IMG/VR virus record: IMGVR_UViG_3300044971_000339
Span: 1-33,403 of that record
Length of the DNA: 33,403 nucleotides
Source: a virus
Taxonomy: Duplodnaviria > Caudoviricetes
Direction: 5' to 3' (one strand)
In this document: piece by piece, positions 17,003 through 33,187 of the stretch
Position numbering within the stretch: the stretch's first letter is position 1
How the letters are laid out: each line of letters begins with the position of its first letter
Notes under the pieces: model-generated
Told to the model about the DNA's origin: nothing
The model's input: only the letters and a program-made list of their open reading frames with translations
Database searches by the model: none
Made by a program: the position numbers and the translations under genes

Positions 17003-17370
17003 AACCTCACTTTTTTGCTCTCTAGCATCTCTTTCATCTGTTTAAGAATCGCCTTGCCTTCATCGGAAACGTGCTTCGGGGCTGGCAACGACACGGTTTG
17101 GCGCTGCTCAACACGATCAAAGTCGCGACACATACCCATGAACTCCGACAAGCTGGGAGGCCAGTCTCGCCCAAGGCTGGGCAGGTTTTCGATGACCTTG
17201 CGGATGACTTCAGGCTTGGTCTTGCGGAGGAACGTCTCCCAGGCTTCGTTCGCAGCCATGATGCCGTTGTCGTCCTCCATGTACATCGCCTTCACCTTCT
17301 GGTTGCCGTACATCACCGAGAAGTGCTGCATCATGCGTTCAGCGTAAGGGTAGCGGGATGGCATTGGCAT
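16999..17370 (-). CDS. Putative helicase loader (lambda P-like)
   Basis: Follows the initiator; WPPSLSEFMGMCR motif; start at 17370 or 17364. Confidence 0.6.
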   Translation of the reverse strand: MPMPSRYPYAERMMQHFSVMYGNQKVKAMYMEDDNGIMAANEAWETFLRKTKPEVIRKVIENLPSLGRDWPPSLSEFMGMCRDFDRVEQRQTVSLPAPKHVSDEGKAILKQMKEMLESKKVRL

Positions 17371-18076
17371 CTCCCATGTCGATGAAGTCATCTTTCCTTT
17401 CCCACGAACCAAAGATCAGTTCAGACTTTCGGTCATTTTTAGCTTGCTGTGTATTGGGGGAAACCCTAGTGTTGCGCACCCAGTTGCGCCACGTTGCAAG
17501 CCAATCGGCCTTCAACCCTTTGCTCCCAGGCTGCGCGATCCAATAGTCGCGGAACGCATCGAACGTCTTGCGCGGGTCGATGTCTGGACGCTCCTGCTTG
17601 CAGAAGTCAATCCACTCATCCGGCACCTCCTGAAGATCAAAGCGCGTCGAGCGCGGTTTCTTTTCTTTTATATGGTTACTGGTTATTGGTTCTTGGTTAT
17701 TGGTTAGTTGAACATCTGTTGGCTGTGTGTTGGACACTTGCTCAACAGGTGTTGAACTTGTGTTGATCCTGTGTTCAGCAGATGCTTTACCAGCCTTGCT
17801 TCGCTTGTGGATAAGTTCCTTGTACTCCTTGATTTCAGCGTCACAGCGAGTGTGATGCCAGCAACCATCTTCTAGCCTGAAGAACGAGACAAGGATTAAT
17901 TGGACGGTTTTTTCGTCAGTCCCAAGCTGAAAGGCAAGGGCTTCTATGTCATCTGGAAGTGGCCGCTCGCGGTCGTAGTACATCCAGATCAGACGCAGGT
18001 AGGCCATCGACTGAGCATCTGTCAGCCTAGCGGTCGCCTTGACGAAATCACCGATGTGGTGATGGTAGTAATGCAC
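17339..18076 (-). CDS. Replication initiator, DUF1376/YdaU family
   Basis: HYYHHHIGDF..AYLRLIWMYYDRERPLPDD N-terminal domain; FRDYW..DWLATWRNW C-terminal domain; GTG start with GGAG SD. Confidence 0.85.
   Translation of the reverse strand: MHYYHHHIGDFVKATARLTDAQSMAYLRLIWMYYDRERPLPDDIEALAFQLGTDEKTVQLILVSFFRLEDGCWHHTRCDAEIKEYKELIHKRSKAGKASAEHRINTSSTPVEQVSNTQPTDVQLTNNQEPITSNHIKEKKPRSTRFDLQEVPDEWIDFCKQERPDIDPRKTFDAFRDYWIAQPGSKGLKADWLATWRNWVRNTRVSPNTQQAKNDRKSELIFGSWERKDDFIDMGDANAIPLPLR
17673..17780. repeat. Putative replication origin: 5x 7-mer TGGTT(A/C)N plus 7x TGTTGAACA-like iterons
   Basis: 7-mers at 17673-17707; 9-mers begin at 17706, 17717, 17728, 17739, 17750, 17761 and 17772 (11-bp period); adjacent T-rich tract. 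Confidence 0.8.
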
Positions 18077-18080
18077 GAAC

Positions 18081-18209
18081 AATCTCCATCGGTGCTGGCC
18101 TATCCGGTGGAAATTCCGGCAGGTCGCACCCAGGACGGGTTAGAAACGGTCAGATAGACCAGCCCGATAAAGACTGTCCGCTGACCTGCTATGCGCTTTC
18201 CACGGCGCA
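18081..18209 (-). ncRNA. Structured 5' leader RNA of the replication initiator (candidate translational switch)
   Basis: Non-coding gap downstream of a sigma70-type promoter, containing several complementary segments including one that covers the SD. Confidence 0.65.
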
Positions 18210-18214
18210 GAACG

Positions 18215-18243
18215 ATCATACGAAAACAAAGTTTGCCTGTAAA
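18215..18243 (-). promoter_or_regulatory. Sigma70-type promoter for the replication genes
   Basis: TTTACA-N17-TATGAT on the minus strand. Confidence 0.75.
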
Positions 18244-18267
18244 GCCTTACACCAACCTTACAGGCAA
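18222..18267 (-). terminator. Possible terminator hairpin after the Cys-rich peptide gene, overlapping the -35 box
   Basis: TTGCCTGTAA (18233-18242) and TTACAGGCAA (18258-18267) are an inverted repeat, followed on minus by ACUUUGUUUU. Confidence 0.5.
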
Positions 18268-18272
18268 CCCTG

Positions 18273-18422
18273 CTAGAAACAATTGGTATTGCAATTCCCC
18301 CCAAAACAACAGGTAGTGCAAGTCACCATCCTGCCGTTGATTGTGTATGTGTGCGTGCTGCAAGCAGCGTAAGCAACACTCGCAACAAGTGAGAACAACA
18401 GACCTACTGCTACTTTTTTCAT
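18273..18422 (-). CDS. Secreted six-cysteine miniprotein (49 aa precursor)
   Basis: AAGGAGGT SD; MKK + hydrophobic core + AYA signal peptide; mature ACSTHTYTINGRMVTCTTCCFGGNCNTNCF. Confidence 0.85.
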   Translation of the reverse strand: MKKVAVGLLFSLVASVAYAACSTHTYTINGRMVTCTTCCFGGNCNTNCF

Positions 18423-18472
18423 CTCGACCTCCTTGTAGTGAAAAACACCTGCTATAGAACCTTTTCCCCGCA

Positions 18473-18760
18473 CTACTTGACACTGATTCTTCCAGCCTCG
18501 CATAGCGCAACCAACGTCTTGCGAAACGCATCCTCCCAGGCTTCCCGCCTTTCCTCTCCCGACATCTTCGCCCCCTGGTCGATGGCAAAGTGGCAGTGCT
18601 GACAAAGTGCCGCGGTAAAGCAGTCGTGCGACTTCATCCCCATGCCCTTACCGTATGCACCCCAGTTGGCATGAGCAGCTTGTGTCTGACCGTCCAGACC
18701 ACATCGCTGGCAGGATAGAGAGGCAACGGCTTTTAACCATGACTTACTGCGGAACATCAA
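18473..18760 (-). CDS. HNH-like nuclease (DUF968/Ref-like)
   Basis: RSKSWLKAVASLSCQRCG..AAH..GMGMKSHD..LCQHCH. Confidence 0.75.
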   Translation of the reverse strand: MMFRSKSWLKAVASLSCQRCGLDGQTQAAHANWGAYGKGMGMKSHDCFTAALCQHCHFAIDQGAKMSGEERREAWEDAFRKTLVALCEAGRISVK

Positions 18761-19511: not shown

Positions 19512-19813
19512 AGTTCAACCTCTTTCAGTTGCCACCTGTTGCCTTCCTTGAACCACCCATGTAGCACCACCCGCCACCCTGAACGCAGCATCTCTGGGTA
19601 AGCCTCGGCTTCTTCGATCTTGTGTTTGCGAGCAGACAGGTTTGACTTGCTTGTCACCTGGATTGCTACTGTCTCTCCGTGACCGATTGCCAGCAGATCG
19701 ATACAGCCCCACAAGTCATGCTTGCGCTTGGTGAAGCTGTTGTAGTGCTCGACTAGAGCCACCTGATAGCCTCGCTCTACAAGCAGCGCTTTACTTCGGG
19801 CTGTTAAGGTCAT
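19508..19813 (-). CDS. PD-(D/E)XK-like nuclease, possible resolvase
   Basis: LVERGYQV..DLWGCIDLLAI..VAIQVTS. Confidence 0.55.
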   Translation of the reverse strand: MTLTARSKALLVERGYQVALVEHYNSFTKRKHDLWGCIDLLAIGHGETVAIQVTSKSNLSARKHKIEEAEAYPEMLRSGWRVVLHGWFKEGNRWQLKEVEL

Positions 19814-20006
19814 AGTCCGGTCTCAACATTGCCAACGTCACTCGACCCCCTGTCAGTCGCTCGATCTCCACCGCACGATTGAGAGGGACTCGACCGGCTC
19901 GCCTCCAATTGTGGATAGCCTGCCGCTTGAGTCCCAACAAGCTGCACAGCTTTCCCTTGCCGCCGATGATTGCTGCTGCCAGCGCGATTGCCTGTTCCTG
20001 CGTCAT
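19791..20006 (-). CDS. cro: Cro/YdaS-like HTH regulator
   Basis: GGKGKLCSLLGLKRQAIHNW..VPLNRAVEIERLTGGRVTLAMLRPD; first gene of the leftward operon. Confidence 0.85.
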   Translation of the reverse strand: MTQEQAIALAAAIIGGKGKLCSLLGLKRQAIHNWRRAGRVPLNRAVEIERLTGGRVTLAMLRPDYDLNSPK

Positions 20007-20026
20007 GTCACCCCCGTAAAGTTGCG

Positions 20027-20096: not shown

Positions 20097-20145
20097 ATAA
20101 AAATATTTATCCACACAATGCCAAAGAGATGACATATGATGTCAA
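20097..20145 (+). promoter_or_regulatory. Probable rightward early promoter
   Basis: TATGAT at 20135-20140 with an AT-rich upstream tract; the -35 match is poor (CACACA). Confidence 0.45.
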
Positions 20146-31382: not shown

Positions 31383-33028
31383 CGGCCCCCGGTCGGAATC
31401 AGATCAACGTCAACACCTACAGCGCTGACCCAGTTACCAGTTGGTACAACAGAAAGACGATGAAACTTGCCGCGAGAACGTAGAGACACGCGATTATCAG
31501 AATCAGCAGCAACAGGACTCGCATAGCTGATGTTCCCGTCCAACCTCTTTCGAGACGCTACAGCCACCGTCGCTGACCCGTTGTCAATCAGCGGCCTCGC
31601 AAGCGTGATGATAGATTCAAGACCCTGCGCCTCAATATCGCCAGTCTGAAGCGTAGCAGTAAGATCCTCGCCTCCGAAAGTAATGATCTTATCCCCATCG
31701 ACGCCACCCTGAATCAGTTTGCCGCCAGACCAAATACGAGAATCCAGGCTTGCAGGAACCGTGTCGATGTTCGGATACAGCGCCGCAAGGCTTTCCAAAT
31801 CCGTACTGCTAGTTGCTACAGTGCTCACATAATCAGCGGTCGTTTCGCCATGCGTCCACTTGTCCACCTGCCAGTTGTAGACCAGCAGTTGCTTCATCTG
31901 GAAGATGTCGGTAAAGCCCCATGTCACCGTCTTGTTGATCGGGTCAACAGCAGCAGACATCTCCGTTAGCTTGCCAGGATCGAGTACAGAGTAGAACCAA
32001 CGGTCTACTCTCTCAGCACCGATTGGTTTAACCGTCTGACCGTCGCAGACAAAGAACCCATCGTCTGACAGGAAGAACGTCATTGACCCGTACTGCACGA
32101 CAGAACGGGACTCGTAGCAGCCAAGCGAACGGGTAAGTGTGTCGAACTGGAAATAAAGGGGAGCGCCGATGTACGTCATCCGCACAATAGAACGCTCCAT
32201 AAGAACAAGCCCAAACTCACCACCAGTCAACCCACGAACCTCACCACCATCAGGAATATCCTGCGAATCAGCCTGACTACCAGAACCAGATGTCCAGTCT
32301 GTAGCGTCGTTAATGTCAGACCACTGCACTCGATTGGGATAGCTTGCCTGTTTGCCAGTGACTACAAAGTCACGAACAGTCGTCACAAACTGAGCAGACG
32401 GAGCAGATGCGTTGAGATCGGCAAAGTTGGCTGATGATCCAACCGTCCATGCTTGGAGTTTGTCCAGACCATTAGCAGCGATCAAAGTCTGACCAAACTG
32501 CGTAAACGTCCACTGTGTAGTGGTTGTGTATGCGGATGCTGTGCGCGATACGTCTTGCAGATACTTCAGCGTTGTCGCTGTGCCTCCAGAGGTGTAAGTG
32601 CCGAACGCTGTCGAGTTCACTCCGTTAAGACTGAACGAGTTAGCATCGATCACCGTTATGACGTAAGAGTTGCCGTTTAGCTGCGTCATCCCGCCAACAG
32701 CAGCAATCAATACTGTGATCCCTGTACGGAACCCATGACCCGTGGCGGTAATTACGCAAGGGTTAGCCTTCGTCGCTCCGGTAATCGTTGCAATCTTGCT
32801 AGGCCAATAGCGGAATAGCTTGTTAGCGCCAGCAGCAATCAACAGGGTATCGGTGTTCCACCGGGCTACAGAACAAGTCAGCAGGTTTTCGCTTGCAGAG
32901 TTGGAGAAATCGGCAGCGCTGGGCATAGGCCCGTAACCTACAAGCGTAGGTAAGACGTTCTTTGCCTCAACCAGACTGTCGGCAATACCCGGGCGGTCTG
33001 GTGTCCACTGGCCGAAATTTACTCTCAT
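31379..33028 (-). CDS. Tail nozzle/stabilisation protein (beta-propeller) with E1-FCCH-like insertion
   Basis: WTFTQFG, NRVQWSDIND..W and FFLSDDGFF motifs; ITGATKANPCVITATGHG..GGMTQLNG insert. Confidence 0.78.
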   Translation of the reverse strand: MRVNFGQWTPDRPGIADSLVEAKNVLPTLVGYGPMPSAADFSNSASENLLTCSVARWNTDTLLIAAGANKLFRYWPSKIATITGATKANPCVITATGHGFRTGITVLIAAVGGMTQLNGNSYVITVIDANSFSLNGVNSTAFGTYTSGGTATTLKYLQDVSRTASAYTTTTQWTFTQFGQTLIAANGLDKLQAWTVGSSANFADLNASAPSAQFVTTVRDFVVTGKQASYPNRVQWSDINDATDWTSGSGSQADSQDIPDGGEVRGLTGGEFGLVLMERSIVRMTYIGAPLYFQFDTLTRSLGCYESRSVVQYGSMTFFLSDDGFFVCDGQTVKPIGAERVDRWFYSVLDPGKLTEMSAAVDPINKTVTWGFTDIFQMKQLLVYNWQVDKWTHGETTADYVSTVATSSTDLESLAALYPNIDTVPASLDSRIWSGGKLIQGGVDGDKIITFGGEDLTATLQTGDIEAQGLESIITLARPLIDNGSATVAVASRKRLDGNISYASPVAADSDNRVSLRSRGKFHRLSVVPTGNWVSAVGVDVDLIPTGGR

Positions 33029-33187
33029 TCTGCCTTCGTCTGCTCTTGAACCTGCTCACGCAGCTTTTGCCACAGCGCGACCGACATCTCCAACGGCAGT
33101 TTGCCCAGCCCCATCGCAATGATGTTGGCCTCCTCTACCGTGATCTTGATGGTGAACTCTTGCATCTCAGGCAGCCCAGGGAAGGGG
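33011..33187. repeat. Terminal direct repeat, copy 2
   Basis: Matches 1-177 with 4 substitutions. Confidence 0.97.
33025..33165 (-). CDS. Second copy of the 46-aa tail-associated protein (one L-to-I change)
   Basis: Same ORF as 15..155. Confidence 0.8.
   Translation of the reverse strand: MQEFTIKITVEEANIIAMGLGKLPLEMSVALWQKLREQVQEQTKAE

Follow-up and report, generated by a model that had tools for sequence, protein, structure and literature searches.

A candidate two-state regulatory RNA family of the CI/c4 kind in the leader of a likely phage replication-initiator gene

The leader and its genomic setting

The window, that is the whole stretch of 33,403 bases analysed here, corresponds to record IMGVR_UViG_3300044971_000339 (CheckV completeness 95%), and its open reading frames are those of a tailed phage. 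The early region carries a Cro-like gene, NinB, DUF968, an Erf-like recombinase and an exonuclease (Pfam and PHROG assignments). A DUF1376 (YdaU-like) gene lies on the minus strand at 17339-18076 (245 aa, GTG start at 18076-18074, PF07120 E = 3e-21). The PHROG groups of its product are labelled as primosomal and replication initiation proteins, which makes it a likely replication initiator, and its best cultured relatives are less than 60% identical. Positions 1-177 of the window recur at 33011-33187 (97 bases exact), after which the two copies diverge, a pattern that either an incomplete repeat of the ends or the joining of two variants would leave.

The Cro-like gene (19791-20007, minus strand) likely starts at ATG 20007 rather than at 20135, and no CI gene lies opposite it in the window. 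The absence of CI had been pointed out in the first-pass annotation of this DNA, and it extends to the relatives: among 11 genomes at least 90% complete that carry the leader described below, none encodes a tyrosine integrase, an S24 repressor or ParA, on which basis these phages look lytic, while seven have a Cro-like gene. According to a covariance model, each of the 11 genomes contains a single copy of the leader.

The leader is located on the minus strand between a promoter-like site at 18243-18215 and the GTG start at 18076. This sigma70-type site, TTTACA-17-TATGAT, is present as previously annotated (-35 at 18243-18238, -10 at 18220-18215) and matches 10 of 12 consensus positions, with a predicted transcription start at about 18209-18208. 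Taken alone it is no better than what shuffled sequences offer (2 found, 2.6 expected). In the family, a -10-like hexamer is kept 6-8 nt before P1, a 4-bp 5' hairpin (18193-18208), in 45 of 54 members, and P1 therefore likely starts the transcript. The -35 box is overlapped by a terminator-like hairpin (18233-18267, minus strand), which likely insulates the leader from upstream transcription and includes two direct TGTAAGG repeats (18256-18262 and 18245-18251). These 7-mers, 11 bp apart, occur nowhere else on the minus strand of the window. The repeat was found in 16 of 190 distinct upstream sequences, all of one lineage, in which it is kept even where the hairpin is lost, and it may be an operator. 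Directly 5' of the promoter, a small cysteine-rich ORF (18276-18500, minus strand) probably encodes a signal peptide and is unmatched in both Pfam and PHROG; by eye, coding DNA resembling it precedes the leaders of several relatives.

The leader region folds at -66 kcal/mol (z = -5.0), a value equalled by none of 200 shuffles, and the abundant pairing reported from the letters of the window is thus real. All its elements lie on the minus strand. The loop of P1, at the predicted 5' end of the transcript, holds site x (18197-18203), a heptamer with a swapping code whose letters GUGGAAA are, as had been noticed, complementary to UUUCCAC at site x' (18107-18113). Base 18107 belongs both to x' and to a CCGG hairpin, whose 3' stem starts with it. 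Site y (18183-18189, extending to 18180) is the partner of y' (18119-18125), the pairing of 18189-18180 with 18119-18127 consisting of 7 bp, one bulge and 2 bp. Site z (18181-18186) overlaps y and pairs with z' (18153-18148), a helix that closes the early, Shine-Dalgarno (SD)-open domain referred to as ON; within it, hairpin H (18156-18179) tucks the anti-SD away. Site z' and the CCG of a short helix P5 (18149-18147) together span 18147-18153 and are common to the ON and OFF folds.

The OFF fold is dominated by a helix between 18176-18151 and 18080-18106 that has 26 bp and one bulged A (A18093) and buries the GGAG SD (18087-18084), as had been proposed for a shorter version of about 23 bp. Its outer part, P3a, joins the anti-SD arm (18164-18176) to the strand with the SD (18080-18092), and its inner part, P3b, joins 18151-18163 to 18094-18106. 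In this hairpin x' lies in a 9-nt bulge and y' in an internal loop. In the ON fold x' lies instead in the loop of hairpin P6 (18104-18119, extending to 18123-18099), which holds the 3' strand of P3b. A further hairpin, P4 (18128-18140), is variable and dispensable, being missing in two members (L316 and L368) that retain y'.

A leader family with six covarying helices

Protein relatives bear the same leader with compensatory changes. The family was collected with a search pattern of anchors in which two code positions were left free, giving at least 120 viral matches (about 200 estimated) and at least 119 metagenome matches, two sets that overlap. Among the matches listed, the free positions are complementary in 113 of 120 viral and 115 of 119 metagenome sequences, and the complementary matches sit just 5' of replication-initiator genes; the non-complementary ones listed are 8 chance loci, 2 one-mismatch members and 1 sequence with Ns. 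From 95 distinct cores, 86 were aligned (4 chance loci, 1 core with Ns and 4 near-duplicates were left out), and clustering at 90% identity yielded 50 representatives. A second set comprises 29 metagenome representatives, each less than 90% identical to any earlier one. Altering the first loop base in the scan returned 48 hits, with only 4 further members (G-C to C-G). When sources were scored with a covariance model derived from 27 rows, 71 of 81 exceeded 50 bits on the sense strand.

Each helix was tested by comparing the duplex energy of a representative's own two strands with 5000 permutations among representatives, kinship being handled by the 90% clustering alone. Six helices covary in this comparison of related leaders. 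With 50 representatives, z-scores were -9.9 for x/x', -14.5 for y/y', -11.3 for z/z', -16.8 for the anti-SD/SD helix P3a, -12.4 for P3b and -8.1 for P6, each with 0 of 5000 permutations, whereas six control pairings stayed at |z| ≤ 2.2. The 29 independent representatives gave -8.8, -11.8, -7.2, -12.3, -12.6 and -4.9, respectively. The letters of P1 are set by the search pattern, and this hairpin therefore provides no covariation evidence. In a MAFFT alignment of 27 clean rows, 11 of 51 pairs changed on both sides, with 63 both-side-change cells against 20.3 in shuffles; such changes affect five of the seven y/y' pairs and two pairs of z/z'. The two free positions of site x are complementary to x' in 50 of 50 representatives, and a third position covaries with x' in four members (L255, L260, L274 and L275). 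Hairpin H, which is more stable than shuffles in 44 of 50 representatives, has no own-versus-permuted signal (z = -0.8, n = 50). An apparent covariation between linker length and a T after CGG, considered as an indel signal, turned out to be the same register read differently and was not counted.

These results bear unevenly on the ON fold as first drawn. Its helix between 18180-18189 and 18119-18127 exists and covaries, while CGGG/CCCG and GGUC/GACC, its nested stems, are possible pairings that lack covariation (z = +1.0 and -2.2, the latter with 87 of 5000 permutations, for n = 50; +0.8 and -1.0 for n = 29; a single both-side-change cell in the 27-row alignment). Two covarying helices are missed or underplayed in that earlier description.

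The ORF 3' of the leader was assigned in 52 cases: 31 are DUF1376, 2 are HTH_36 and 6 are further PHROG replication proteins (39 of 52), and the leader, kept before replication ORFs of different families, thus accompanies the function even when the protein is replaced. The others are 5 nucleases, 3 ORFs without match and 5 without Pfam match (Pfam only); an initiator-like ORF, judged by eye, follows directly in 5 of the nuclease or small-ORF cases of this set and also in L032. At six loci (L120, L132, L201, L212, L260 and L032, the last judged by eye), an HNH, GIY-YIG or T5orf172 gene adjoins the leader and takes its ribosome site, and in L120, L132 and L032 an initiator-like ORF comes after the nuclease gene. 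Two RNA-library contigs of relatives span the leader and run 31 and 53 nt beyond it into the promoter, and accordingly say nothing of RNA ends, strand or level.

Among 185,579 prokaryote genomes the pattern had six hits, of which four are true members, all on MAG contigs labelled Rhodoferax, Limnohabitans, Methylococcaceae and Microbacteriaceae. In L239, the 12 kb examined contain only phage-type genes, so that the labels do not settle the host. The first-pass annotation had not recognised the family, and neither does Rfam: there was no match in the window at the gathering score; at E up to 10, two unrelated weak hits both lay upstream of the leader and none at it; and 20 diverse family loci gave one unrelated hit, away from the leader. 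BLASTN searches with the leader against 50,697 phage and 72,556 plasmid records were negative. We found no paper on the leader motif in a literature comparison that stopped short of the supplementary alignments of Weinberg 2017 and Fremin 2023. The supplement of the former (PMC5737381) may hold the motif; the supplementary tables of the latter include three candidates 5' of DUF1376 genes (DNAVirus_187, DNAVirus_230 and DNAVirus_4653; PMC10690425), which may include a fragment of the leader element. On this comparative evidence from sequence, we regard the leader as a real, uncatalogued regulatory RNA family of the CI/c4 kind.

The same slot can be filled by other modules. The int-alpA RNA (RF02996) occupies it 5' of DUF1376 genes in related phages and matches 13 of 20 tested DUF1376 loci at E < 1, five of them above the gathering score. 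It differs from the leader in sequence and structure: RF02996 has no match at the leader, and the leader model misses the two int-alpA loci tried. In the 220 nt 5' of the DUF1376 start at 80 loci (L037-L116), a regular expression found 49 int-alpA-like elements, 15 leader motifs and 3 of a third class, with none seen in 13. At several loci, judged by eye, bases close to the SD seem to be complementary to the second int-alpA loop, and in L125 (1141-1348) an int-alpA-like element stands directly 5' of the leader in place of the promoter, forming a tandem of two modules. The third class (positions 1351-1503 of L069, L077 and L104) has a 5' hairpin with a UUGGCG or UUGGCA loop, whose complement lies inside a long hairpin ending in a terminator-like U-run; it has no hit in Rfam or with the leader covariance model. 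UUGGCG is the loop motif of ColIb-P9 Inc RNA targets, according to the title of a reference listed in PMC10724649.

Two alternative folds and the predicted folding path

The ON and OFF folds compete for sequence in several places: the inner end of the OFF helix includes bases of z', the 3' strand of P3b is also needed for P6, and y and z have bases in common. The ON helix y/y' and the OFF helix do cross, as had been described; they have no bases in common, and their competition would be either steric or exerted via z/z' (18186-18181 with 18153-18148), a pairing that went unnoted earlier.

Folds were computed with ViennaRNA without pseudoknots, the x/x' kiss being represented by an added helix term of about -11 kcal/mol with no loop penalty. 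For the window, the OFF fold has -65.6 kcal/mol, the best SD-free fold -43.6 and the originally annotated ON fold -38.6, with a barrier of 15.2 kcal/mol. The means over the 50 representatives are -65.0 for OFF and -45.5 kcal/mol for the SD-free fold, with an ON-OFF barrier of 15.8 kcal/mol; the kiss would add stability that ViennaRNA does not count. The best SD-free fold consists of z/z' and the 3' hairpin in 42 of 50 representatives, which displaces the ON fold as originally drawn; it keeps P3b and not z/z' in 10 of 50, and y/y' is absent from it in 50 of 50.

When the leaders were folded by length, z/z' formed first in 49 of 50 representatives, y/y' appeared as a mid-length intermediate in 33, z/z' and P6 were together just before the SD emerged in 42, and P3b was there once the SD was out in 44. 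The predicted order is therefore ON and then OFF, from an SD-open state with z/z' and P6 to the P3b-containing OFF hairpin: ON would be metastable and form early, and the RNA would end in OFF, some 20 kcal/mol more stable. Taken together, a conserved two-state switch on the likely replication-initiator gene, the central proposal of the first-pass annotation, is well supported across the family.

The role assigned to y/y' is less simple. As an ON helix it is under strong selection; in cis, however, it is predicted only as an intermediate, and occupation of y favours OFF. When the 7 nt of y were forced unpaired in silico, P3b formed before the SD in 33 of 50 representatives against 8 of 50 when free, while blocking x (8 of 50) or P4 (6 of 50) had no such outcome; blocking y' gave early P3b in 30 of 50. 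Occupying y favours OFF because y overlaps z. Moreover, the linker from y to the outer helix measures just 0-10 nt in the OFF fold, by our estimate too short to span 26 bp, so that the partner of y in the OFF state would be another molecule.

Known RNA systems, the loop code and a possible mode of action

Of the analogies proposed at the outset, that to P1 c4 and P4 CI RNA is the best. The P4 CI RNA has two exposed patches, one in a bulge, and the P1/P7 C4 RNA has an a1/b1 and a2/b2 anatomy in which few letters set specificity. This hallmark is present in the leader, where two exposed patches, x' and y', match upstream targets on the same transcript and both covary. As in P1/P7 C4, a 5' hairpin-loop site is followed by a second site, both are matched in a downstream long hairpin, and specificity comes down to a few letters. 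As in P4 seqA/CI, where replication genes are governed from the leader transcript, the element lies 5' of a likely initiator gene. The P4 transcript contains in its interior a structured segment whose complement, the target, lies at its own 5' end (PMC4825925), and C4 acts on icd-ant (PMC8198154).

In contrast to P1/P7 C4, the leader lacks a2/b2, an icd-like ORF and an antirepressor, and its target is the likely initiator. A second downstream target of the a2/b2 or seqC type was seen once among 53 loci against 1.5 expected (flanks of 29-3260 nt), and not in the window. No short ORF of the icd or kil type was found downstream of the leader, the initiator following directly in 39 of 52 cases, and the C4 model RF01695 gave no match at E up to 1 in 5 genomes. 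Unlike P4, the leader has no downstream seqC-like copy, its output would be burial of the SD by the 26-bp helix rather than premature termination (no U-run follows, and runs of 5 T occur in 6 of 53), a processing signal does not seem to be conserved, and the phages are autonomous and without tyrosine integrase.

The leader would also resemble Gifsy-1 IsrK, a single RNA with inactive and active structures that acts on its own message and whose locus has been termed a structural homologue of P4 seqA (PMC4825925). IsrK, however, activates via a terminated short form and an upstream ORF, whereas the leader has neither a terminator nor a conserved upstream ORF and repression is predicted for it; the IsrK model RF01394 does not match it. 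In the IncI/IncB/IncL-M rep systems (repZ pseudoknot, Inc RNA/RNAI), a loop pairing gates initiator translation; in the leader the pairing covaries and the gating is predicted. There, too, few letters set incompatibility, RNAI of IncK1 and IncK2 having a five-letter difference (PMC10724649). The IncI/IncB analogy raised earlier nevertheless fails on anatomy. Unlike the I-complex plasmids, the leader has no counter-transcript promoter (best antisense score 7.1 versus 7.4 in shuffles, over 53 loci and with the sigma70 consensus only) and no conserved leader peptide (the ORF beginning at the loop codon has 4-50 codons and no SD, and a CTG start in 4 of 53), and the 72,556 plasmids contain no DNA like it.

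The loop code has an unusual distribution. Two codes dominate (201 of the 239 matches listed), and both letters on both sides (2+2) are swapped within 9 of 14 near-identical clusters in the first set and within 10 of 20 in the pooled set, five pairs being otherwise identical. None of the wobble intermediates GG/TC, GG/CC, GG/CT or AA/TT occurs among the 239 matches listed. On a tree, the code takes 28 steps against 34.8 (sd 2.3) for shuffled labels, and its retention index of 0.375 is below that of all 66 variable columns (median 0.77, minimum 0.41), a comparison in which the tree favours those columns, from which it was built. This polymorphism, common to many lineages, is as expected from selection on specificity between phages and thereby argues for it indirectly. 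Three one-mismatch forms (L014, L231 and L322) have the 5' half of one code and the 3' half of the other and are likely recombinants; L014 and L322 represent observed single-crossover forms. Restriction avoidance was considered as a cause of swapping, as one code makes GAATTC in some members, and was set aside, as members without the site swap as well (L124/L143 and L140/L171).

We propose the following sequence of events. During synthesis, z/z' would close the anti-SD into hairpin H, P6 would take the 3' strand of P3b and x would pair with x' in cis, so that the SD would emerge free and initiator would be made. The SD-free state, predicted to lie about 20 kcal/mol above the OFF hairpin, would then decay into it. 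The OFF hairpin could display x' in its bulge and y' in its internal loop, through which it might engage the 5' end of a newly made transcript at x and y; docking would remove z from z' and commit the new transcript to OFF. The initiator would be produced in a brief pulse, with negative feedback and with late phages of the same code excluded; the circuit would resemble P4 seqA/CI, a single RNA serving as target, repressor and message.

We give this model, in which a metastable ON leader relaxes to OFF and OFF leaders silence new leaders of the same code in trans, roughly even chances, and the same holds for action of the leader in trans as such. Several observations count against the trans reading: y/y', being a mid-length intermediate in cis in 33 of 50 representatives, could be conserved without a trans role; two dominant codes are few for an exclusion system; the 28 steps of the code fall below the shuffled value; and phages that look lytic may have little use for lasting immunity. 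A more far-reaching version, which we offer only tentatively, sees the leader as a self-propagating conformer: unprocessed OFF leaders would turn fresh copies OFF via the two-site code, without antisense gene, processing or protein, and would govern replication in place of CI in lytic freshwater phages, the code defining mutually excluding kin groups under frequency-dependent selection.

Alternatively, the leader could be a pure timer in cis, in which x/x' and P1 form an H-type pseudoknot, y/y' serves as a topological trap, the ON-then-OFF path opens a brief translation window for each transcript and no molecule acts on another. The MS2 maturation-gene leader obtains a short translation window through such ON-then-OFF folding, and with 4 bp in P1, a loop of 1 nt and a second stem of 7 bp, the dimensions here agree with those of the common H-type pseudoknot. 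The folding simulations reproduce the whole path in cis with the mean barrier given above, and the x-y and y'-x' spacings are fixed in 82 of 86 cores, as expected if both pairings form simultaneously. Nonetheless, such a timer leaves without reason both the repeated 2+2 swaps in otherwise identical elements and the missing wobble intermediates, and we judge it possible, if rather unlikely.

More unlikely still is a processed repressor, a core of about 70-75 nt (18163-18090) cut from the OFF hairpin by RNase P or RNase III and acting in trans. The core resembles P4 CI and P1 c4 in size and in its stem-bulge-loop plan, and a helix of 26 bp suffices in length for RNase III. The 13 bp of P3b are followed by A in 33 of 48 leaders, and ACCA or ACCG follows in 25 of 48. 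Strict ACCA, however, accounts for only 14 of 48 (ACCG for 11), and the CC that follows the bulge, being paired to GG within P3a, co-changes with it in five members (L140, L174, L189, L194 and L228), and so does not appear to be kept as a tRNA-like end.

It is quite improbable that OFF is the default and that a trans factor turns the leader ON, be it a short 5' RNA as in IsrK or a phage or host protein binding the near-invariant P1 and CGG-AA positions. The greater stability of OFF, by about 20 kcal/mol, would fit, as would the near-invariance of the P1 letters (the 4 further members among 48 altered-loop hits), and the IsrK locus has a logic of this sort (PMC4825925); yet the rarity of 5-T runs leaves no terminator to release a short RNA, and occupation of y' also favours OFF in silico. 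Finally, a single static fold whose only effect is weaker translation, or a role in the DNA itself, for instance as an origin hairpin, is very improbable: the OFF hairpin does dominate the equilibrium, but mutually exclusive helices covary, the sense strand folds better than the antisense strand in 48 of 50 representatives (334 of 2428 pairs are G-U), and the element has a fixed place between promoter and start codon.

If silencing in trans by OFF leaders is true, phages without tyrosine integrase, CI or partition genes would limit their replication and exclude kin by an RNA of 130 nt alone, which would bear on replication timing and the handling of coinfection in abundant uncultured aquatic phages. 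Natural pairs that are alike except in the code, such as L124/L143, L129/L190, L154/L215 and L022/L119, make specificity in trans directly testable. Even if it acted only in cis, the leader would be an uncatalogued switch whose two folds comprise six covarying helices, and would lend itself to studies of cotranscriptional folding. The occurrence of the int-alpA RNA in the same slot, lastly, hints at a function for that orphan motif.
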